Positions 45,331-62,203 are shown, counted from the first letter of the stretch. The stretch is DNA of 64,000 bases from Mobula hypostoma (GCF_963921235.1 NC_086097.1:32614001-32678000); one strand, 5' to 3'. Notes: a model not told the origin generated them from the sequence alone. Numbers and translations: made by a program.

Positions 45331-45755
45331 CTTCAAGAAGACAGCATCTGTAGTCAGGGACCCCCACCACCTTGGACACGTCCACTTCTCATTACTACCA
45401 TCAGGAGGGAGGTACAGGAGCCTAACAACACACACTAAATGTTTAGGAACAGCTTCTTCCCCTCCACTATCAGATTTCTGAACAGTCCATGAACCCATGA
45501 AAATTATCTCACTACTCTGCTCTCTTTTTGCACTACATCTTATATGTTCCATCATAACTTATGGAATTTATTATTTATTTAACTGTACTGCACCGCAAAA
45601 CAACAAATTTCACAATATTTGTCTGACAATAAATCTGATTCTGATTGCTGTCTGCAAAAGTCTGTTAAAATTTTCGCAATAGTTTAAGTGTGACTCAATT
45701 TCCATTAAAATGAATGCAGGCACAGTCCGATTTGACAGTTCACTGTTCAACCTAC

Positions 45756-45873
45756 TGCTTGGTCGGAGTGGCCTCTGCATTATTGGTAACTCTTTGGAGT
45801 TAAGTGGTGACCCCCGTGTTGTTTGGCCTCCTGGTCCAGAACGATCCACGTAATCATCCCATGGCGTTGAAAA
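45756..45873 (-). CDS. ATG2B: ATG2B internal coding exon (2nd, divergent linker)
   Basis: atatttcag|TTTTCAACGCCATGG...CCAAGCA|gtaggt. Encodes FSTPWDDYVDRSGPGGQTTRGSPLNSKELPIMQRPLRPS. 118 nt, phase 0 to 1, fits both neighbours. Protein similarity is weak and the donor position is less certain. Confidence 0.75.
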
Positions 45874-46654
45874 CTGAAATATAGAAAGATTAATTTTATA
45901 TATTTTTTCTGTATCATGCTCAAAGTTAAAAGGGCCTTTTGCTTGATATCAGAACACAAGGGACATTGACAAGGTTACACGTAATTACATCAAGAAACAA
46001 CCAACACTAGGGTTGGCTTCTTGAGAGCTACAAATGAAAGGTGACAAGGTTTTGTAAAACCTGCAAAAAATCTTGGAAAGAGTGAACAGTTGTGGCTCTA
46101 AGTTATAAAAAGCATAAGCAATGGAGAAGTAGAAAAAAAAAGACTGATGCTACCAATGAGATATTATACCTATCTGGAAAGACTGAACAAGACAGCACTG
46201 CATTCTCCAAAACAACAAAGCATGATAGAGAACTTGAACATTGTGGACTTCATTAATCAACTTGTGAAGAAGTTGCTTCACTTCCGGAATCATCTCTGGT
46301 CTGAAGTCAAATAGAGTTGTGCAGCACAGAAACAGGTCCTTCAGCCTACCACATCCATATTGACCCTTTTGTCCATCATAAGACCATAAAACATAGGAGC
46401 AGACTTAGGCCATCTGGCCCATTGAGTCTGCTCCACCAGTCAATCATGGCTGATTTATTATCCCTCTCAACCCCATTCTCCAGTCTTCTCCCACAAATGA
46501 ATTCCACAGATTCACTACCTTCTTGCTAAAGAAATTCCTCCTCAGCTCTGTTCTTAAGGGACATCCTTGCATTTGGAAGCTGTGCCCTCTGGTCCTGACT
46601 TACTCACCATTAGAAATATCCACTTCACATCCACGCTATCTAGGTCTTTAATAA

Positions 46655-46877
46655 ACACACATCAAAGTTGCTGGTGAACGCAGCAGGCCACGCAGCATCT
46701 CTAGGAAGAGGGACAGTCGACGTTTCAGGCCAAGACCCTTAGTTAGTCCTGATGAAGGGTCTCGGCCTGAAACGTCGACTGTACCTCTTCCTAGAGATGC
46801 TGCCTGGCCTGCTGCGTTCACCAGCAACTTTGATGTGTGTTGCTTGGATTTCCAGCACCTGCAGAATTCCTGTTGTT
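46655..46877. mobile_element. Fold-back (hairpin) Penelope-derived non-autonomous insertion
   Basis: 14-bp TSD taggtctttaataa (46641-46654 and 46878-46891). 86-bp inverted arms 46655-46740 and 46755-46840 with 3 mismatches. Confidence 0.9.
46745..46780 (+). ncRNA. Minimal type I hammerhead ribozyme motif (Penelope pseudo-LTR type)
   Basis: agtc-CTGATGA-agg(gtctcgg)cct-GAAA-C-GTC-gact: stem I, catalytic core, stem II and a GUC cleavage triplet. Stem III is vestigial. Confidence 0.8.
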
Positions 46878-47104
46878 TAGGTCTTTAATAATTTGGTAGG
46901 TTTCAATGAGACCTCATTCTTGTAAACTCCAGTGAGTACAAACCCGGAGCAATCAAATGCTCCTCATATTTTAACCTTTTAATTCCCGGGTTCATTCTTG
47001 TAATATTCCTCTGGGTCCTCTTTAATTTAAGCACATCCTTTCTTAGATATGGGACAAAATGCGGCTCACAATACTCCAAATGCAATATGATAAATGCCTT
47101 ATAG

Positions 47105-48560
47105 AACATAGAACATAGAACAGTACAGCACAGTACAGGCCCTTCAGCTCACAATGTTGTGTCGACCCTCAAACCCTGCCTCCCATATAACCCCCCACCT
47201 TAAATTCCTCCATATACCTGTCTAGTAGTCTCTTAAATTTCACTAGTGTATCTGCCTCCACCACTGACTCAGGCAGTGCATTCCACGCACCAACCACTCT
47301 CTGCGTAAAAAACCTTCCTCTAATATCCCCCTTGAACTTCCCACCCCTTACCTTAAAGCCATGTCCTCTTGTATTGAGCAGTGGTGCCCTGGGGAAGAGG
47401 CGCTGGCTATCCACTCTATCTATTCCTCTTATTATCTTGTACACCTCTATCATGTCTCCTCTCATCCTCCTTCTCTCCAAAGAGTAAAGCCCTAGCTCCC
47501 TTAACCTCTGATCATAATGCATACACTCTAAACCAGGCAGCATCCTAGTAAATCTCTTCTGTACCCATTCCAATGCTTCCACATCCTTCCTATAGTGAGG
47601 TGACCAGAACTGGACACAGTACTCCAAGTGTGGCCTAACCAGAGTTTTGTAGAGCTGCATCATTACATCGCAACTCTTAAACTCTATCCCTCGACTTATG
47701 AAAGCTAACACCCCATAAGCTTTCTTAACTACCCTATCCACCTGTGAGGCAACTTTCAGGGATCTGTGGACATGTACCCCCTGATCCCTCTGCTCCTCCA
47801 CACTACCAAGTATCCTGCCATTTACTTGGTACTCTGCCTTGGGGTTTGTCCTTCCAAAGTGTACCACCTCACACTTCTCCGGGTTGAGCTCCATCTGCCA
47901 CTTCTCAGCCCACTTCTGAATCCTGTCAATGTCTCTCTGAAATTTTCGACAATCCTCTACACTATCTACAACACCACCAACCCTTGTGTCATCTGCAAAC
48001 TTGCCAACCCACCTTTCTACCCCCACATCCAGGTTGTTAATAAAAATCACGAAAAGTAGAGGTCCCAGAACAGATCCTTGTGGGACACCACTAGTCACAA
48101 ACCTCCAATCTGAATGTACTCCCTCCACCACGACCCTCTGCCTTCTGCAGGCAAGCCAATTTTGAATCCACCTGGCCAAACTTCCCTGGATCCCATGCCT
48201 TCTGACTTTCTGAATAAGCCTACTGTGTGGAACCTTGTCAAATGCCTTACTAAAATCCATATAGATCACATCCACTGCACTACCCTCATCTATATGCCTG
48301 GTCACCTCCTCAAAGAACTCTATCAGGCTTGTTAGACACGATCTGCCCTTCACAAAGCCATGCTGACTGTCCCTATCAGACCATGATTCTCTAAATGTCC
48401 AGAAATTCTATCTCTAAGAATCTTTTCCAACAGCTTTCCCACCACAGACGTAAGGCTCACTGGCCTATAATTACCTGGACTATCCCTACTACCTTTTTTG
48501 AACAAGGCGACAACTTTCGCCTCCCTCCAATCCTCCGGTACCATTCCCGTAGACAACGAG
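47105..48560 (-). mobile_element. Young 5'-truncated CR1 copy with open RT-to-C-terminus frame (47169-48353)
   Basis: 394-aa ORF with [29 protein letters not shown]; (ttctatg)n tail. Confidence 0.95.
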
Positions 48561-49324
48561 CTCAGCATTACATCCTTGCATTTATATTCTAGTCCTTTGA
48601 AAATGAATGCTAACATTGTATTTGCCTTCTTTACAATCGACTCAACCTGCAAGGTAACCTTGAGGGAATCACGAGGACTCCGAAGTCCCTCTGCACCTTC
48701 GATTTCTGTATTTTCTTTGGGTTAGGAAAATAATCTATACCTTTACTCCTTCTACCAAAGTTCATGACCGAGCACTTCCCAATACTGTATTCCAACTTCC
48801 ACTTCTTTCCCCATTCTCCTAATCTGCCCTAGTCCTTCTGCAGACTCCTTGCTTCCTTCACCCTACCTGCCTCTCCACCTATTATTTCATCTGCAAACTT
48901 GGCCAAAAAGCCATCAATTCCATTGTCCAGATCATTAGCATATCACCTGAACTGCACAGAACACCACTAGTCACTGGCAGCTAACCAGAAAAGGCCTCCT
49001 TTATTACTGTTCTTTTCCCACTCCAAAACTCACCTGTCTGTAGTCAATAGAAAAAATCTTTAAGTGTGAGACTTGAATGACTTATCGCTCAGAGGAGAAC
49101 AGGATGCACATTAATAACAAGGTGGAAGTACATGACAGACCATCAATCTTTCTGATACCAGCAATGAGTAGGCAAATTTACTGGTTCATTTTATAGCTTT
49201 GCCATTGTGGAGTTGAACTTCTGACATTAGAGTTCTAGTTCTTAACATTACATTACAACACATACAACACTATTCCGAGCCTGGGGTTATGAACAAAGTG
49301 CTGCTGACTTATAACGGTATAATT

Positions 49325-49700
49325 ATAAACACAAGGGAGTCTGCAGATGCTGGAAATCCAGAGCAACACATATAAAATGCTGGGGGAGCTCAGACCATCA
49401 GGCAGCATCTGTAAAAGGGAATAAGCAGTCAACATCTCAGGCCAAGACCCTTCAGCAGGACTGAATGGGAAGGGGGCAAAAATCAGAAGGAGAAGATGGG
49501 GGGAGGAGAAGGAGTACAAACTACCAAGCGAAAAGTGAAACCAGGTACGGGGGAAAAGTAGGTGTTTGGGAGAGGGGATATGATGCATGGTGCTAAGAGG
49601 TGATATATGGAAGAAGTAAAAGGCTGAAGAAGGTATCTGATAGGAGGGGACAGTGAACCATGGAAGAAAGGAGGAAGGGTATCAGAAGCAGGTGAGGATA
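49325..49700 (-). mobile_element. Penelope pseudo-LTR fragment
   Basis: Reverse complement reads cagtcctgctgaagggtcttggcctgagatgttgactg...ccagcattttatatgtgttgctctggatttccagcatctgcag. Confidence 0.75.
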
Positions 49701-49829
49701 AAAGAAAATAAGTAATTACACTATTTTGTCAGCATGATTAGGAATGTGACATGTAATATACTGCATTATAACCTTGTACTACATATTTTTCAACATAGCT
49801 GTGGATGAAATGATGGCCAAAAGCATAAA

Positions 49830-50290
49830 AGCATAAGACATAGAAGCAGAATTAGGCCATTCAGCCCATCAATTCTCCTCTGCCATTGCATCATGGTTGA
49901 TTATCTTTCTCAACTTAATTCTCCTGCTTTCTCCCCATACCCCTGATGCCCTTACTGATTAAGAACCTATCAATCTCAGTTTTAAATACACCCTACGACT
50001 TGGCCTCCACAGACATCTGCGGCAATGAATTCCACAAATTCATCACCCTCCTGCTTAAGAAATTCCTCCTCACCTCTGCTCTAAAACGACATCCTTCTGT
50101 TCTGTGACTGTGACTCTAGTTTTAGACTCTCCACGTTCACTCTATCTAGGTCTTTCAATATTCAATAGTTTCCAATTAGATCCTCCCTGTCATTCTTCTA
50201 AACTCCAGCAAGTACAGGTCTAGAACCATCAAATGCTCCATATACATTAACCCTTTCATTCCCAGTATGAACATTCCTGGATTATCATAC
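49830..50290 (-). mobile_element. CR1 3' fragment ending ~15 nt from an ATG2B donor site
   Basis: CR1 3' coding remnant and UTR with cataagacatag tail. Confidence 0.75.
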
Positions 50291-50303
50291 GCACTCTGCT
50301 TAC

Positions 50304-50455
50304 CCCTGTGGCGCTCTGCGGTGAGCTGTCTGTTGAGTTGATATGTGTACTGCTCAGTGATAATTCCATATCTACAGTTGGTTCTCCCAGAGGTGGAAGG
50401 GATGCCACACTGTTTGACATTTCCATGTCTGCCATTGAGAAAAAGACGTCATCTT
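50304..50455 (-). CDS. ATG2B: ATG2B internal coding exon (1st of 12 in window)
   Basis: tttctctcagcag|AAGATGAC...GCCACAGGG|gtaagc. Encodes (E)DDVFFSMADMEMSNSVASLPPLGEPTVDMELSLSSTHINSTDSSPQSATG, matching recalled vertebrate ATG2B EEEVFFSMADMDMSHSLSSLPPLGDPP. Phase 1 to 0. Alternative NAGNAG start at 50458. Confidence 0.92.
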
Positions 50456-51147
50456 CTGCTGAGAGAAATGAAAAGCTAAATAACAAACTATGCACAGTAC
50501 CTAGCACATTGCTGAAATTGTCAAGGGATATTTAGATGAGGATGAACAGTAACACCCACCCCCACACTCTCAGTCTGGGTGAAAAAAGCAATTGGGGTGA
50601 GTGCTGCCACACTGGGATGGACAATATCCAGCAAGTATTGCTGCTAAATATAGTACAGTTCAGTTTGGGTTCAGTTATGCTGAAGCTATCTTGTTACATA
50701 TGGTCAGTTCTCACAGTCTAAAGGCCATGGATGAACAGCAGCAGCATTAATTCAATCTCAGTTGGAATATGAAGGGTAGAATGAGAACTTGTGAAGGTTG
50801 GAATGTGGTGGTGAAGAGGTACAAGGGATGGGAATAAAGTATTACCCATATATTAATTGTTTTCCTCATTGTCCATTTAATCACTACACATTTTGGTCTT
50901 ACCAAGAACAGGACTACACATCCTATTTTAAAGGGTCTGATCCTTAAAATGCAAATAAAAATTAGGCTATTAGGTTCCACAAGCTTACCCCACTATTCAA
51001 CATGATAATGGATGATCTAACCTGGCTACATCTAATGTTCCAGTTCCCCATAACTTTCAATTCCTCGATCTCTAAAATAATTATCTATCTTCAGCTAAAA
51101 TATAATGACCTGTCCTCCACCACCCCTTAGGAGTGGAGAATTTCATG

Positions 51148-54100
51148 CTGTCGGAGCAGGCAGCGGAGTGAGTGGGAGCAGAGTATAGGGCTTTGGCTTC
51201 AACGGGCTTCGGCGGTAAACGAGAAGAGGCGAGAGCAAAGCGCCAACTCTTTTTTTTTTCTCCCCACTCTTTCGCGAATCGGCCCGGACAGACAGGAACA
51301 GCAGGGCTCTCACAGCTAACGGTACAAGCTAACGGTTTAAAAAGTTCGTCTGTTTGGCGAGGTAAGTGGGTGAGTAGACTTATTTTTCCTGTTTCATTCC
51401 TGCAGGATTAGTGCTTTGTTCAGGGTGTCAGATGTGAGAATCCTGGGAGACCTTCAGCCTCCCTGATGGCTACATCTGCGCCAGGTGCATGAGATGCAGC
51501 TCCTCAGAGACCGTGTTAGGGATCTGGAGCTGCAGCTTGATGACCTACTGCTTATTAGGGTAAGTGAAGAGGTGATAGACAGGAGCTACAGGGAGGTAGT
51601 CATCCCTAGGCTACAGGGGTCGGAAAACTGGGTCACTGTCAAGAGAGGGAAGGGAAATGCCCAGATAGTGGAGAGCACACCTGTGGCTGTCCCCCTCAGC
51701 AACAAATATCTTGTTCTGGATGCTGGTGAGAGGGATGACCTGACAGGGGACGCCCACAGTGACCAGGTCTCTGGCACTGAGCCTGGCGCTGTTGTGCAGG
51801 GGAGAAGGAGGGAGAAGAGAAATGCGGTAGTCGTAGGGGATTCCATAGTCAGGGGAACGGAAAGGAGATTCTGTGAGCCTGATAGAGATACCCGCATGGT
51901 GTGTTGCCTCCCAGGTGCCAGGGTACGGGATGTCTCGGATCGGGTCCTGAATATTCTAAAGGGGGAGGGTGATCAGCCAGTTGTCTTGGTACATGTTGGT
52001 ACCAATGACATAGATAGGACAAAGGAGGAGGTCCTGAAGAGAGATTTCCAGGAGTTAGGAAGGGAGCTGAGAAGCAGGACCTCCAGGGTAGTAATCTCGG
52101 GATTGCTACCTGTGCCACGTGCTAGCGAGGGCAAGAATAGTCAGATCAGGCAGATGAATGCGTGGCTGAGAGACTGGTGTAGGGGGCAGGGCTTCAGATT
52201 CTTGGATAATTGGGATCTCCTCTGGGGGAAGTATGGCCTGTTCAAAAAGGACAGGTTACACCTGAACCCGAAGGGGACCAATATCCTGGCGGGAAAGTTT
52301 AATAGAGCTGTTAGGGAGGGTTTAAACTAATTTGGCAGGGGGATGGGAACCGGAATGACAGAGCGGAGGAAGGGGAAAACAGAAATATATCTAAGATAGT
52401 GAGTAGTAAAGATGTCAGGAAAGACAGGCAGGTGATGGGGCAAATTTGTAGCCATTGGGATGAGTTGCAGTGCAATAAAGTTGCAGTGAAATCAAAGTGA
52501 AAAGTATCAAATACTGGTCTTAAGGTGTTGTACTTAAATGCATGCAGCATAAGGAATAAGGTGGATGATCTTGTCGTACAGCTATAGATTGGCAGGTATG
52601 ATATTGTGGCTATCACTGAGACCTGGCTAAAGGATGCATGTCTCTGGGAGCAGAACGCCCAAGGATACATGGTGTATCGGAAGGATAGGAAGGTAGGTGG
52701 GGGGGGGGCGCGTGGCTTTATTGGTAAGGAATGATATTAAATCATTAGAAAGAGGTGATATAGGATTGAAAAGTGCAGAATCTTTATGGGTTGAGCTAAG
52801 AAATAGCGGGGTAAAAGGACCCTGATGGCAGTTATTTATAGGCCTCCAAACAGCTGCAGGGATGTGGACTACAAATTACAACTGGAAATAGAAAAGGTTT
52901 GACAGAAGGGCAGTGTTATGATAATTGTGGGGGATTTTAACATGCGAGTGGATTGGGAAAATCAGGTCGGCACTGGATCTCAAGAGAGAGAATTTGTAGA
53001 ATGTCTGCGAGATGGCTTTTTAGAACAGCTTGTTGTTGAGCCCACTAGGGGATCGGCTGTACTGGATTGGGTATTGTGTAATGAACCGTAGGTGATTAGA
53101 GAGACTGAGGTGAAGGAACCCTTAGGAGACAGTGATCATAATATGATTGAGTTCACTGTGAAATTTGAAAAAGAGAAGCCGAAATCTGATGTGTCAGTAT
53201 TTCAGTGGAAAAAAGGAAATTACAGTGGCGTGAGAGAGGAACTGGCCAAAGTTGACTGGAAAGGGACACTGGCGGGAAAGACAGCAGAGCAGCAGTGGCT
53301 GGAGTTTATGCGAGAAATGAGGAAGGTGCAAGACAGGTATATTCCAAAAAAGAAGAAATTTTTGAGTGGAAAAAGGATGCAACCATGGTTGACAAGAGAA
53401 GTCAAAGCCAAAGTTAAAGCAAAGGAGAGGGCATACAAGGAAGCAAAAACTAGTGGGAAGACAGAGGATTGGGAAGTTTTTAAAACCTTACAAAAGGAAA
53501 CCAAGAAGGTCATTAAGAGGGAAAAGATTAACTATGAAAGGAAGCTAGCAAATAATATCAAAGAGGATACTAAAAGCTTTTTCAAGTATATAAAGAGTAA
53601 AAGACAGGTGAGAGTAGATATAGGACCGATAGAAAATGATGTTGGAGAAATTATAATGGGAGATAAGGAGATGGCAGAGGAACTGAACGGGTATTTTGCA
53701 TCAGTCTTCACTGAGGAAGACATCAGCAGTATACCGGACACTCAAGGGTGGCAGGGAAGAGAAGTCACAATTACGACAGAGAAAGTACTCAGGAAGCTGA
53801 ATAGTCTAAAGGTAGATAAATCACCCGGACCAGATGGAATGCACCCACGTGTTCTGAAGGAAGTAGCTGTGGAGATTGCGGAGGCATTGGCGATCATCTT
53901 TCAAAAGTCGATAGATTCTGGCGTGGTTCCGGAGGACTGGAAGATTGCAAATGTCACTCCGCTATTTAAGAAGGGAGCAAGGAAGCTAAAAGGAAATCAT
54001 AGACCTGTTAGTTTGACATCGGTGGTTGGGAAGTTGTTGGAATCGATTGTCAAGGATGAGGTTACAGAGTACCTGGAGGCATATGACCAGATAGGCAGAA

Positions 54101-55403
54101 CTCAGCATGGATTCCTTAAAGGAAAATCCTGCCTGACAAACCTATTACAATTTTTTGAGGAAATTACCAGTAGGCTAGACAAGGGAGATGCAGCGGATGT
54201 TGTATATTTGGATTTTCAGAAGGCCTTTGACAAGGTGCCACACATGAGGCTACTTAACAAGATAAAAGCCCATGGAATTACGGGAAAGTTACATACGTGG
54301 ATAGAGCGTTGGCTGATTGGCAGGAAACAGAGAGTGGGAATAAAGGGATCCTGTTCTGATTGGCTGCCGGTTACCAGTGGTGTTCCACAGGGGTCCGTGT
54401 TGGGGCCGCTTCTTTTTACATTGTACATCAACAATTTGGATTATGGAATAGATGGCTTTGTGGCTAAGTTTGCTGACGGTACGAAGATAGGTGGAGGGGC
54501 CGGTAGTGCTGAGGAAACAGAGAGTCTGCAGAGAGACTTGGATAGATTGGAAGAATGGGCAGAGAAGTGGCAAATGAAGTACAATGTTGGAAAGTGTATG
54601 GTTATGCACTTTGGCAGAAAAAATAAACGGGTAGACTATTATTTAAATGGAGAAAGAATTCAAAGTTCTGAGATGCAATGGGACTTGGGAGTCCTCGTAC
54701 AGGATATCCTTAAAGTTAACCTCCAGGTTGAGTCAGTAGTGAAGAAGGCGAATGCCATGTTGGCATTCATCTCTACAGGAATAGAGTATAGAGCAGGGAT
54801 GTGATGTTGAGGCTCTATAAGGCACTGGTGAGACCTCACTTGGAGTACTGTGGGCAGTTTTGGTCTCCTTATTTAAGAAAGGATGTGCTGACGTTGGAGA
54901 GGGTACAGAGAAGATTCACTAGAATGATTCCGGGAATGAGAGGGTTAACATATGAGGAACGTTTGTCTACTCTTGGACTGTATTGTTTGGAGTTTAGAAG
55001 AATGAGGGGAGACCTCATAGAAACATTACGAATGTTGAAAGGCATGGACAGAGTGGATGTGGCAAAATTGTTTCCCATGATGGGGGAGTCTAGTACGAGA
55101 GGGCATGACTTTAAGGATTGAAGGGCGCCCATTCAGAACAGAAATGCGAAGAAATTTTTTTAGTCAGAGGGTGGTGAATCTATGGAATTTGTTGCCACGG
55201 GCAGCAGTGGGGGCCAAGTCATTGGGTGTATCTAAGGCAGAGATTGATAGGTATCTGAGTAGCCAGGGCATCAAAGGTTATGGTGAGAAGGCGGGGGAGT
55301 GGGACTAAATGGGAGAATGGATCAGCTCATGATAAAATGGCGGAGCAAACTTGATGGGCTGAATGGCCGACCTGCTCCTTTGTCTAATGGTCTTATGGTC
55401 TTA
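51148..55403 (+). mobile_element. Near full-length CR1 LINE (5' UTR, ORF1 Zn-finger/coiled-coil/SGNH esterase, ORF2 EN-RT), inactivated
   Basis: ORF1 51485-52330: GDSIVR, VHVGTND, DRLHLN. ORF2 has stops in EN, is open over 53092-54804 with FADD mutated to FADG, and frameshifts near 54790. Tail ggtcttatggtctta. It is inserted in an older minus-strand CR1 remnant. Confidence 0.95.
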
Positions 55404-56684
55404 AAAAAATTACACAACAAGTTTTAAATGTATATGTCCCCTTATCCTGTTCATGTCTCTTTCACCAGTGGAAATATCACAACATCTCTCCCTTTTAAGC
55501 TCCTTTTGGATCTTGGACAAGGTCATCATCCATTCCTTGGAACTACAAGGAATACAAAATCAAAGTGGTCATCCCCTCTTGGAATGACAACCCACATATT
55601 CCAGGAATTAACCTGGTGAATCTCTATTGAACTGTCTCCAATGTCATTATCTTCTTTATGAAGAAGGAGACCAAAACTGTTCACATATTCAGGTGCGGCC
55701 TCACCAACACCCTGTACAATTGTAACAAAACTTCCCTATTCTTAAACTCCAACCCCTTCACAATAAAGGCCAACATGTTGTTTGCCTTAGTAACAACCTG
55801 TTAGACCTGCCAGCTAACTTCTTGTGATTCATCAACAGCAGCACAAAGATCCTGATCTTCACTCACTTGCAGTGTCTCTCCTTTTAGATAATAATCTGAC
55901 TTTTGATTCCTCTCTCTAAAGTGCATGACCTTACACACCCTTACATTACAACACATTTTGCCAAGACTTCAACCAATCACTCAATCTATTGTTTGCCCAA
56001 TATGTCTGTCTTAATTTGCCTATCAATCAATCTCTCATTTGCCAAGTTTTCAGGCAATCATTCAACCTATCCAGTAGAGGTGAAATGCTTCAACCCAAAG
56101 GTTAACTGTTCATTTCCTCCACAGATGCTGCCCAACCCACTGAGTTCCTCTAACAGTTTTGCTTTATCTCCCCCAATTCATTCTCTTCATATACCATTGC
56201 AAAACCACAATCACAGAAATGTGACTTTTCACTGACTGTCATATCAAACTTGGAAATTTTACTGTTATATCAAATTTGGAAATCCAGCAATGTCCAAACA
56301 CCACATCAGGAGGTAACCTGCCATCAAGGCAAGAAATTGGAAGCGTCACCCACATACTTCTACTCTTCTGTCTTTCCCTATATATTTGACAAATATATTG
56401 TAAATATATTTGTCAAATATTTACTTCCCCCACTTCCCAATGTGTCTCTGACACTGTTTAGGGCATAAAACTGGCCGTGTAGCCAGAAAGTAAACTTTCG
56501 GTGAGGTGGAGTTTCCCTAAGCTTTTCAGATTCAAATCATCAGACCTACTTGCTCAACTAATCAAGAGAGCAGAATGTGTTAGGCATCAGAGTGAGATGC
56601 TAATGTCAGCTATCCATCAGCCATTCTCCAATCACATCCTGAGGGACTTGCCTCAATATGTGAGTTCAGTGATAACAATGGAAC

Positions 56685-56840
56685 ACTCACAAATTGGTGA
56701 AGGAACTCAGCAGGTCAAGCAGCATCTATGGAGAGGAATAAACAGTTGATTAAGTCCTGATGAAGGGCCTTGACCAGAAACATCAGCTGTTTATTTCCCT
56801 CCCTAGATTCTGCCTGACCTGCTGAATTCCTCCAGTATTG
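56685..56840. mobile_element. Second, older fold-back Penelope pseudo-LTR with hammerhead-like core
   Basis: Inverted arms (ggaactcagcaggtcaagcagcatcta / tagattctgcctgacctgctgaattcc) around agtcCTGATGAagggccttgaccaGAAAcatc. Confidence 0.75.
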
Positions 56841-57184
56841 CCTTCGAGGTTCTGAGGTTCCGCGGCCCTGCAGGGTCTCTCTCCCTTCCCCTCTCCTGCT
56901 CTCCATGCTCTCTCGTTTCTTGCTGATTCTCCGGTCGGAGAATATGAGGGAAAAAAGTGGCATGACAGACTTTATCATCGTAAATCAGTGAGTTATTTTG
57001 TTATGTCTCCCCTCTCACTGTGGAAGGGGACACTTCTTTTTTCCTTTATTGGGAGCAAGAGAGCCTCTGGTATGTGAACAATTAGTTTTTGTTGTTCTGC
57101 AGATTGTGGTCTTTATTGGGGGCTTTGCCTTTACATGCTTGGTGGGTGGAGGTGCTGATGCTTTTTTTTTGCTGAAGTAACTGC

Positions 57185-58755
57185 CGGTCATTTTCTTCGG
57201 CAGTTGAACGGGGCACGACTGCGCAAACGCTTGTAAGTCCGACCGTGTGGCAGCGGGAGTATTAAAAAGAGAGCAGATTAACGGAGTGGGCGACGGAGTA
57301 GATGGGGACAGAGTAGGAAGGCTTTGGCTCCTGAGGCTTTGGCGACCAGAGGCTGAGGAAGAGCTTCACTCCAAGTGAGGTAAAGTTGGGTAAGTTCCTT
57401 TAATAAATCTAAGTACCTTAGGAGCAGGTAATGGAGGCAGTGAGGGCAGTTGAGTGCTCCGTTTGCAGGATGTGGGAAGTTAGGGCGAGCACAATTGTCC
57501 CTGATGACTACACCTGCGAAAGGTGCATCCAGCTGCAGCTCCTCACAAACCAAGTTAGGGAACTGGAGCTGGAGCTGGATGAACTTTGGATCATTCGGGA
57601 GGCAGAGGCAGAAATAAACAGGAGTTACAGGGAGATAGTCACCCCTAAGAGTCAGGAGACGGGTAGCTGGGTGACTGTCAGGAGAGGGAAGGGGAAGAGA
57701 CAGAATGAGCAGAGCACCCCTGTGGCGTTCCCACCAATAATAAATACATCATTTTGGATACTGTTGATGGGGACGACCTACCAGGGACAAGTTGCAGTGG
57801 TTGCATCTCTGGCACCGAGTCGGGACCCTCAGCTCAGAAGGGAAGAAGGGAAAAGAGGAGAGCAGTAGTGATAGAGGATTCGATAGTTAGGGGGACAGAT
57901 AAGAGGTTCTGTGGAAGAGATGGAGAATCTCGGATAGTCTGTTGCCTCCCTAGTGCCAAGGTCCGCGATATCTCGGATTGAGTTCTCAGTATTCTCAAGA
58001 GGGAGGGTGAGCAGCCAGATGTCGTGGTCCATGTAGGGACCAATGACGTGGGTAGGAAGAGTGAGGAGGTCCTGAAAGGTGCGTTTAGGGAGTTAGGCAC
58101 CAAGTTAAAGGACAGGACCTCCAGGATAGCAATCTTAGGATTGCTACCAGTGCCACGTGCAGGCGGGTTTAAAAATAGTAAGATAGTGCAGATCAACACA
58201 TGGCTGAAGGCATGGGGCAGGAGGGAGCGCTTCAGATTTATAGATAACTTGGCAATTTTCCAGGGAAGGTGGGACCTGTTCCGACAGGACGGTCTACATC
58301 TGAACTGGAGGGGGACAAATATTCTTGTGGGTAGGTTTGCTGGAGAGGCTCCCGTGGATTTAAACTAGATATGAGGGGGGAGGGGAACCAGAGTGTAGGA
58401 ACAGAAGTAGGGAAGAAGGAAGAAAAAGAAAATAGTAAAATTATTTGCACAGTTAGTGATAAACAGAGAGTAAGGTGGAAAATTTCTTAAATGCATTTAT
58501 TTTAATGCTAGGAGCATTGTAAGAAAGGTGGATGAGCTTAAAGCATGGATTGATACTTGGAAGTATGATGTGGTAGCTATTAGTGAAACATGGTTACAGG
58601 AGGGGTGTGATTGGCAACTAAATATTCCTGGATTTAATTGCTTCAGGTGTGATAGAATCGGAGGGACAAGAGGGGGAGGTGTTGCATTGCTTGTCAGAGA
58701 AAATATTACAGCGGTGCTCTGGCAGGATAGATTAGAGGGCTCGTCGAGGGAGGCT
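57185..58755 (+). mobile_element. CR1 5' portion (5' UTR, ORF1, start of EN), second family
   Basis: MEAVRAVECSVCRMW...YTCERC, VHVGTND, DGLHLN, YDVVAISETWL, RGGGVAL. Confidence 0.9.
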
Positions 58756-61700
58756 ACCACCCAGCCTGTGGAAGGCAGCCAGTGAGTGAGTGGGCCAGTG
58801 AAGGTGTGGAGCTTTGAGGCTTTGACTCGAGAGATTCTGGCAGTTTTCGCAGTTGGTCCGTGCAATCAAGTCAATCAAGATTTGAATAGATCAGCAGAAA
58901 CCCGTTGATTAGACAATCAAGATTTGAGTAGCTCAGACTCAGCAGAAAGCAGCTGATTGGGCAATCGAGGTCAGGTGACCAAGCATTTTGAAAAGCTCAA
59001 ACAGATAAATAGAGGGTTGGCTCAAGTGGAGCGGCCTGTGAGTGAGTGGGCCAGTGAAGGAGTGGAGCTTTGAGGCTCTCTCTGAAGGATCTCTTCTGGG
59101 GAAGGTGGGACCTGTACAGACTGGATGGGTTGCACCTGAACTCGAGGGGGAGCAATAGCCTTGCAGGTAGGTTTGCTAGCATGGTTTGGGAGGGTTTAAA
59201 CTAATTTGCAAGGGGGATGGGACCCGGAGCGATAGACCAGTGAAAGGAGTGCATAGAGTAAAGCCAGATCTGACATATAGGGAGGCCTTGAGGAAAGAGA
59301 AGCAGAATAAAGGGTGTAAAGATAGTAAGGTAGAAGGGCTGAAGTATGTGTACCTCAATGCAAGAAGCATCAGGAACAAAGGTGATGAACTGAGAGCTTA
59401 CATACATGGAATTACGATGTAGTGGCCATTACAGAGACTTGGCTGGCACCAGGGCAGGAATGGATTCTCAATATTCCTGGATTTCAGTGCTTTAAAAGGG
59501 ATAGAGAGGGCGGAAAAAGGGGAGGAGGGGTGGCATTACTGGTCAGGGATACTATTACAGCTACAGAAAGGGTGGGTAATGTAGCAGGATCCTCTTTTGA
59601 GTCAGTATGGGTGGAAGTCAGGAACAGGAAGGGAGCAGTTACTCTACTGGGGGTATTCTATAGGCCCCCTGGTAGCAGCAGAGATACAGAGGAGCAGATT
59701 GGGAAGCAAATTTTGGAAAGGTGCAAAAATAACAGGGTTGTTATCATGGGTGACTTTAACTTCCCTAATATTGATTGGCACCTGATTAGTTCCAAGGGTT
59801 TAGATGGGGCAGAGTTTGTTAAGTGTGTCCAGGACGGATTCCTGTCACAGTATGTGCACAGGCCGACTAGGGGGAATGCCATACTAGATCTAGTATTAGG
59901 TAACGAACCAGGTCAGGTCACAGATCTCTCAGTGGGTGAGCATCTGGGGGACAGTGACCACCGCTCCCTGGCCTTTACCATTATCATGGAAAAGGATAGA
60001 ATCAGAGAGGACAGGAAAATTTTTAATTGGGGAAGGGCACATTATGAGGCTATAAGGCTAGAACTTGCAGGTGTGAATTGGGATGATGTTTTTGCAGGGA
60101 AATGTACTATGGACATGTGGTCGATGTTTAGAGATCTCTTGCAGGATGTTAGGGATAAATTTGTCCCAGTGAGGAAGATAAAGAATGGTAGGGTGAAGGA
60201 ACCATGGATGACAAGTGAGGTGGAAAATCAAGTGAGGTGGAAAATCTAGTCAGGTGGAAGAAGGCAGCATACATGAGGTTTAAGAAGCAAGGATCAGATG
60301 GGTCTATTGAGGAATATAGGGAAGCAAGAAAGGAGCTTAAGAAAGGGCTGAGAAGAGCAAGAAGGGGGCATGAGAAGGCCTTGGCAAGTAGGGTAAAGGA
60401 AAACCCCACGGCATTCTTCAATTATGTGAAGAACAAAAGGATGATGGGAGTGAAGGTAGGATCAATTAGAGATAAAGGTGGGAAGATGTGCCTGGAGGCT
60501 GTGGAAGTGAGTGAGGTCCTCAATGAATACTTCTCTTTGGTATTCACCAATGAGAGGGAACTTGATAATGGTGAGGACAATATGAGTGAGGTTGATGTTC
60601 TGGAGCATGTTGATATTAAGGGAGAGGAGGTGTTGGAGTTGTTAAAATACATTAGGACGGCCAAGTCCCCGGGGCATGATGGAATATTCCCCAGGCTGCT
60701 CCACGAGGTGAGGGAAGAGATTGCTGAGCCTCCAGCTAGGATCTTTATGTCCTTGTTGTCCATGGGAATGGTACCGGAGGATTAGAGGGAGGCGAATGTT
60801 GTCCCCTTGTTCAAAAAAAGGTAGTAGGGATAGTCTGGGTAAAATTATAGACCAGTGAGCCTTACGTCTGTGGTGGGAAAGCTGTTGGAAAAGATTCTTA
60901 GAGATAGAATTTCTGGACATTTAGAGAATCATGGTCTGATAGGGACAGTCAGCATGGCTTTGTGAAGGGCAGATCGTGTCTAACAAGCCTGATAGAGTTC
61001 TTTGAGGAGGTGACCAGGCATATAGATGAGGGTAGTGCAGTGGATGTGATCTATATGGATTTTAGTAAGGCATTTGACAAGGTTCCACACAGTAGGCTTA
61101 TTCAGAAAGTCAGAAGGCATGGGATCCAGGGAAGTTTGGCCAGGTGGATTCAAAATTGGCTTGCCTGCAGAAGGCAGAGGGTCGTGGTGGAGGGAGTACA
61201 TTCAGATTGGAGGTTTGTGACTAGTGGTGTCCCACAAGGATCTGTTCTGGGACCTCTACTTTTCGTGATATTTATTAACAACCTGGATGTGGGGGTAGAA
61301 GGGTGGGTTGGCAAGTTTGCAGATGACACAAAGGTTGGTGGTGTTGTAGATAGTGTAGAGGATTGTTGAAGGTTGCAGAGAGACATTGATAGGTTGCAGA
61401 AGTGGGCTGAGAAGTGGCAGATGGAGTTTAACCTGGAGAAGTGCGAGGTGGTACACTTTGGCAGGACAAACTCCAAGGCAGAGTACAAAGTAAATGGCAG
61501 GATACTTGGTAGTTTGGAGGATCAGAGGGAACTGGGGGTACATGTCCACGGATTCCTGAAAGTTGCCTCACAAGTAGATAAGAGTAGCTAAGAAAGCTTA
61601 TGAGCTGTTGGCTTTCATAAGTCGAGGGACAGAGTTGAAGAGTCGCGATGTAATGATGCAGCTCTATAAAACTCTGGTTAGGCCACACTTGGAGTACTGT

Positions 61701-62203
61701 GTCCAGTTCTGGTCGCCTCACTACAGGAAGGATGTGGAAGCATTGGAAAGGGTAAAGAGGAGAGTACCAGGATGCTGCCTGGTTTAGAGTGTATGCATTA
61801 TGATCAGAGATTAAGGGAGCTAGGGCTTTACTCTTTGGAGAGAAGGAGGATGAGAGGAGACATGATAGAGGTGTACAAGATATTAAGAGGAATAGACAGA
61901 GAGGATAGCCAGCGCCTCTTCCCCAGGGCACCACTGCTCAATAGAAGAGGACATGGGTTTAAGGTAAGGGGTGGGAAGTTCAAGGGGGATATTAGAGGAA
62001 GGTTTTTTACTCAGAGAGTGGTTGGTGCATGGTATGCACTGCCTGAGTCAGTGGTGGAGGCAGATACACTAGTGAAGTTTAAGAGACTACTAGACAGGTA
62101 TATGGAGAAATTTAATGTGGGGGATTATATGGGAGGCAGGGTTTAAGGGTCAGCACAACATTGTGGGCTGAAGGGCCTGTAACGTGCTGTACTATTCTAT
62201 GTT
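58756..62203 (+). mobile_element. CR1 LINE with most of ORF1 missing and near-complete, frameshifted ORF2
   Basis: UTR-like segment joined to the ORF1 C-terminus (DLFWGRWDLYRLDGLHLN). EN 59422-60249, RT 60962-61369. A 17-bp tandem duplication at 60212-60245 shifts the frame. Confidence 0.92.

Follow-up and report, generated by a model that had tools for sequence, protein, structure and literature searches.

We find that a 418-bp tract in one CR1-type retroelement copy is repeated exactly, in inverted orientation, in a second copy that is otherwise clearly diverged from it, and this tract very probably records a recent non-allelic gene conversion between two inverted CR1 copies in introns of ATG2B. 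An earlier note on this DNA had claimed such an exact inverted identity. When we recomputed it by direct sequence comparison, the reverse complement of 48046-48463 matched 60852-61269 at 418/418 positions with 0 differences. This is the longest exact repeat within the 64,000-nucleotide window (the whole stretch of DNA analysed here), and the runner-up, at 72 bp, again lies between the same two elements, hereafter copies A and B. The tract is bounded by mismatches at 48464/60851 and 48045/61270. Beyond them the divergence described in the earlier note is there: its 11 mismatches in 61321-61440 were reproduced exactly, and 60760-60851, where mismatches and indels had been noted, holds 8 substitutions and 3 inserted bases.

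The inverted alignment of the two copies runs over 47112-48560 and 60752-62203 and has 1,453 columns, 75 of which differ. All 75 fall outside the tract, 12/100 to its left and 63/935 to its right (75/1,035, or 7.2%, against 0/418 inside), so that diverged homologous flanks enclose a local identity beyond chance. In 200,000 permutations with random placement of the 75 differences, 0 gave a clean run of 418; the longest clean run had a mean of 91 and a maximum of 276, and an analytic bound for a run of 418 gives p <= 3e-10. The tract measures 418 bp at most, and at least 246 bp if measured between the shared minority substitutions that lie furthest apart (48162 and 48407). Copies A and B are separated by 12,191 bp, in agreement with the distance of about 12 kb proposed earlier, and the tracts themselves by 12,388 bp.

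Table 1. Positions of the tract, the CR1 copies and neighbouring features in the window
Feature	Position	Strand	Basis
Identical tract, copy A	48046..48463	-	Exact comparison and bounding mismatches; maximum extent 418 bp
Identical tract, copy B	60852..61269	+	Exact comparison and bounding mismatches
CR1 copy A	47112..48558	-	5'-truncated ORF2 (reverse transcriptase part) and 3' end; RVT_1 E=4e-28
CR1 copy B	59078..62203	+	ORF1 C-terminal remnant, whole ORF2, 3' tail; Exo_endo_phos E=5e-17, RVT_1 E=7e-21
Shared 1-nt deletion (frameshift), copy A	48374..48375	-	Family contigs one base longer; frame change at 48374
Shared 1-nt deletion (frameshift), copy B	60940..60941	+	Alignment and translation
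Older CR1 fragment, 3' side of A insertion site	46906..47106	-	P0013 aa 532-598
Older CR1 fragment, 5' side of A insertion site	48563..49016	-	P0013 aa 370-530
ATG2B exon enclosed by A and B	~50304-50458	-	63 matches from 110 ATG2B queries, best E=6e-15

Family states and the shared deletion

To polarise the differences, we aligned contigs from public data (four runs, from two samples and two organisms) to copy A with a likeness threshold of 90%. Each run contributed 55,892 to 133,983 contigs, and the majority letter was taken as the family state. The pile-up covers copy A only, and the counts come from 40 of 114 rows, 31 of the 40 falling in copy A; the best share was lowest at 0.77 among the rows checked, and we infer lower shares in the remaining rows. 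Differences between the two copies account for 24 of the 31 sites, and at 24/24 of those listed the family majority is B's letter. Two further listed sites, 48035 (CpG) and 47525, are common to A and B outside the tract. The other five (48162, 48224, 48398, 48404 and 48407) lie inside it and have minority letters in both copies, letters that are absent from 83-99% of depth in the X1 pile-up; four of the sites stand in a non-CpG context.

Outside the tract, 24 listed sites are A-only, up to 51 columns fall on B's side and 2 sites are shared. At the protein level, an alignment over 212 conserved sites to the right of the tract has 8 A-only and 14 B-only departures, and 8/8 of the A-only amino-acid departures coincide with listed pile-up sites. 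These separate mutation sets indicate that copies A and B decayed separately. The flanks, as far as the 40 of 114 rows list them, have independent histories, and the derived alleles inside the tract are shared. A Fisher test of the shared fraction inside versus outside the tract gives p=3e-5, a value that depends on the identity itself and is not separate support. Proteins on metagenome contigs were also scanned and yielded 30 loci, whose best-segment identity of 28-59% is too distant for polarising; they were left unused.

The 1-nt deletion that the earlier note had placed in both copies is present: at this point both read [10 protein letters not shown], whereas the homologues compared (P0001, P0007, P0013 and P0070) read LIRDSQHGF or LIRESQHGF. 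The extra base at 48374 occurs in the family in 4/4 contig runs; 24-33% of the depth at the site is listed with it and the remaining depth is unclassified. Rare letters 24-33 bp from the deletion make up 0.8-2.9% of depth in run X1, a frequency like that of most A-only sites. For a 22-base motif spanning the deletion, with either state allowed, there were 0 matches in metagenome contigs and 0 matches in viral contigs. Together, the five minority substitutions and the deletion argue that the tract is the sequence of a particular mutated copy and not the family majority sequence. Since rare mutations are shared between copies that decayed separately, independent insertion from a clean source is insufficient to explain them.

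Two shared letters outside the tract deserve comment. Asn-for-Asp at 48035/61280 was considered as a sign of a longer tract and carries little weight given its CpG context; 13% of family depth (run X1) lacks the majority letter there. At 47525/61790 the copies have in common a non-CpG letter that is missing from 98.6% of family depth in run X1; it lies well away from the main tract, where A and B are identical over 41 bp. Chance recurrence and a second small conversion patch are the two candidate explanations.

The CR1 copies and their place in ATG2B

Copies A and B are dead CR1-type LINE copies. Copy A is truncated at its 5' end, roughly 95 bp ahead of the tract; downstream of the frameshift it retains an open frame of 412 residues, and it has 0 stops and 0 indels outside the tract. 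The ORF2 of copy B encodes an endonuclease and a reverse transcriptase and is interrupted by stops and frameshifts. A domain search placed PF03372 and PF14529 at 59389-60246 in copy B and PF00078 in both copies, so the apurinic-type endonuclease and reverse transcriptase that define a CR1 ORF2 are present. The 3' end of a CR1 element is a short tandem repeat; copy A ends in a short TTCTATG-type microsatellite tail, that of copy B is shorter, and poly-A is absent in both. The best 120 relatives listed include reverse transcriptase proteins from shark, ray, turtle and bird, names that come without a clade statement, and the highest identity among them is 85%, to a Hypanus sabinus protein.

The 5' start of copy B is uncertain and may extend back to about 58760. 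Its ORF1 remnant (59087-59247) is a C-terminal piece only, 76% similar to ORF1 ends in other parts of the window, and the Pfam GDSL match falls on a neighbouring element outside the copy. Over 58760-59250 the start of copy B resembles a 5'-UTR-like stretch joined directly to the last ORF1 codons, as if most of ORF1 had been lost by internal deletion, and a 54-bp motif occurs twice nearby, at 58768 and 59026. Between A and B lies a more distant CR1 copy (53092-54804) with a 570-residue open frame. Two CR1-like reverse transcriptases, P0001 and P0024, are 76% and 68% identical to copy A. Their records name Klebsiella pneumoniae and Proteus mirabilis, with contigs of 1.6-1.7 kb, and are probably bacterial entries contaminated by animal DNA.

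Copy A is a nested insertion, because the two halves of an older CR1 on either side of it join in register (P0013 residues 494-530 and 532-598). No target-site duplication was seen around copy A. From its own microsatellite tail and its nesting in the older CR1 it follows that copy A is an ordinary insertion and not a local duplicate of B. Joints that skip copy A were considered as an empty site and set aside: their short side is 20-24 bases and they are present in organism A too, and we take them to be further copies of this older CR1. Just past this older host element, at 46654-46841, is a 188-bp near-palindromic element that is 93% self-complementary with 37-bp perfect arms; the window contains further short elements related to it.

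Both copies sit in ATG2B, a gene on the minus strand, in introns that flank one of its exons, with copy A in the sense direction relative to the transcript. An exon at 28.1-28.4 kb shares 92% identity with a Chiloscyllium protein; together with the 85% identity to the Hypanus sabinus protein, this suggests a cartilaginous fish as host, probably a ray. The enclosed exon, whose edges are approximate as they were taken from AG/GT sites, is on the minus strand like the other exons found in the window, so that the unchanged orientation asserted in the earlier note stands. The search with 110 ATG2B proteins gave no further convincing exon between the copies. At 50455-50460 the enclosed exon has a tandem CAGCAG acceptor that makes two starts 3 bases apart possible. 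A weak ATG2B match (E=0.004) at 45676-45870 on the minus strand is probably the next exon downstream of copy A, poorly conserved. Within one pre-mRNA, copies A and B flank a single exon and are complementary to each other (93-100% over 1.45 kb); as RNA they could pair and might thereby favour editing or back-splicing.

Probable copying between the two elements and its alternatives

The history that best accounts for these observations starts with a CR1 family of very high copy number, two members of which inserted independently, in opposite orientation, on either side of one ATG2B exon and then each decayed alone. Recently, 246-418 bp of one copy would have been overwritten with the other as template, carrying along five point mutations and the 1-nt deletion. 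We infer one-way copying in the germ line. By what is generally understood of the mechanism, a break in the germ line was likely repaired by strand invasion of the other copy, 12 kb distant, and synthesis-dependent annealing without a crossover, or an equivalent template switch took place during replication; the data do not separate the two. The earlier note had proposed intrachromosomal ectopic gene conversion without crossover, and the family pile-up, the shared rare alleles and the intact exon orientation support it. The exon is in gene orientation and B is the more damaged copy on both sides of the tract, as expected of an exchange without crossover. A crossover would invert the ATG2B exon, an outcome that selection would probably remove, and non-crossover is therefore the outcome expected to survive. 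The event is without evident function, and no regulatory or adaptive role is indicated.

Copy A is probably the donor and copy B the acceptor. The derived load is 6/418 (1.4%) in the tract, 26/1,035 (2.5%) in A and up to 53/1,035 in B (5.1%, an upper bound). The load of the tract does not differ significantly from that of A (Fisher p=0.24) and differs from the upper value for B (p=0.0007), a contrast that falls to p=0.009 at 80% of B's upper load and to p=0.10 at 60%. The likelihood ratio for A as donor ranges from 5 to 786 according to the true load of B. The tract is also nearer to the family majority than the flanks of either copy. The 4 indel events and 2 stops in the aligned flanks are all in B, and the deletion therefore resembles B's kind of damage; load favours A while the indel pattern leans to B. 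Our initial reading, taken from B's stops and frameshifts, had B as donor and was reversed by the family pile-up and the load comparison.

The conversion appears to be young. Contigs of organism A have 0 differences from the window over the unique flank (324-325 bp, two runs) and 0 over the 3' junction of copy A (185 bp); one 124-bp piece from X1 in the older CR1 flank has 2 differences. Organism B, a relative that is about 2% different, has 7/325 differences in the unique flank. Compared with that flank, 0/418 in the tract is improbable (Fisher p=0.003), which suggests that the event probably took place after the split from this relative, as dated from one short flank.

Other histories could in principle give rise to the same tract. 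The presence of the tract at both loci rests on the assembly, as no listed contig spans it or ties it to unique flank, and one tract might have been written over the other during assembly or polishing. The huge size of the family invites mis-mapping, and such an error would also be in keeping with zero differences over roughly the length of a short-read insert. However, mis-mapped family reads would have pulled the sequence to majority letters and the tract has rare ones, reads from A should map back to A given 7% flank divergence, and the window agrees without differences with organism A contigs over the 3' junction and unique flank of A; we regard an artefact as improbable. Alternatively, A and B could be young insertions from two recombined source elements, both already carrying the tract with its frameshift. 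In a pile of so many copies, a subfamily making up less than 1-3% would be invisible, and most of the depth at the deletion, beyond the 24-33% with the extra base, is unclassified. On this account, though, every one of the 75 differences in the flanks, the stops and frameshifts of B among them, must have been inherited from two degenerate sources, both of which would have had to land within 12 kb, and the letters close to the deletion are themselves rare in X1. A recombinant source element is unlikely, and this pairing of two of them very improbable.

The template could also have been a third copy, or an RNA or cDNA intermediate, from which both loci or one were converted. The load of the tract lies below the flank load of either copy, and copy A, being sense to the ATG2B transcript, would exist as RNA. 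A third donor, though, requires two events whose borders coincide, and the load deficit relative to A is not significant; copying from A by way of RNA would produce a pattern identical to that of direct copying and is indistinguishable from it here. We consider a third template very improbable as well. Least probable of all is a double inversion, in which two crossovers flipped the 12-kb segment and back and left a conversion patch. Inverted geometry generally permits such exchanges, but the exon is in gene orientation, the heavier damage of B on both sides of the tract (with few sites on the left side) argues that the flanks were not swapped, and two events with a probably harmful intermediate are needed.

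Relation to known conversion between retroelements

The conversion between A and B, taken as a single event, is minor: a neutral repair scar in dead repeats, and one more case of a process already known. Its value is that of a well-bounded, polarisable ectopic conversion between LINE copies outside mammals, which suggests that CR1 copies separated by 12 kb and differing by 7% can still recombine across a conserved autophagy-gene exon. Such conversions can give old copies a young look and, if common genome-wide, would allow an estimate of rate and tract length for elasmobranchs. The available part of one source gives CR1-group elements as 22-34% of elasmobranch genomes (PMC13343379), and close pairs should therefore be plentiful. 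It is a doubtful idea that nearby inverted CR1 copies in elasmobranchs convert often, with tracts of several hundred bases at 7% divergence, that this event is still polymorphic and that enclosed exons filter out inversions. If this were true, the tracts would be a record of ectopic repair that could be counted and dated, in a vertebrate lineage that evolves slowly, and repeat age estimates in elasmobranchs would be biased. Among the literature entries listed, no title or start of abstract describes conversion of CR1 or of elasmobranch repeats, and in the available part of PMC13343379 the word "conversion" appears only in a reference title.

As far as the same text goes, the canonical vertebrate CR1 has an ORF2 with endonuclease and reverse transcriptase, an esterase-type ORF1 and no poly-A tail (PMC13343379); copy B has both ORF2 domains and copy A the reverse transcriptase, and the two copies likewise lack poly-A, but are dead fragments.

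Non-allelic gene conversion has reportedly been described between neighbouring Alu elements by Aleshin and Zhi in 2010. A whole Alu is shorter than 418 bp, so that the tract reported here, at its maximum extent, exceeds one. In the excerpts available, conversion between neighbouring Alus takes place within about 10 kb and is most efficient at 89-100% identity (PMC8230782, PMC6598467), and young elements are more often the donor (PMC8230782). Here too copying would be one-way, with a probable direction, between near and similar copies of one retroelement family; the 93% identity of A and B is inside the quoted optimum and their spacing is of the order of 10 kb, at 12.2 kb slightly beyond the quoted distance. 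Unlike the Alu cases, this one concerns a CR1 LINE in inverted arrangement in a cartilaginous fish, and a single event deduced from one haplotype, where Doronina et al. 2021 (PMC8230782) had an orthologous outgroup. Compared with conversion of transposable elements more generally, as treated in the excerpt of Fawcett and Innan 2019 (PMC6598467), the patch transferred here is dead, frameshifted reverse-transcriptase coding sequence without an indicated role; the transfer of mutations and the local drop in divergence are the same. The less decayed copy is the probable donor here, which is the commoner direction among Alus in the available text of PMC8230782.
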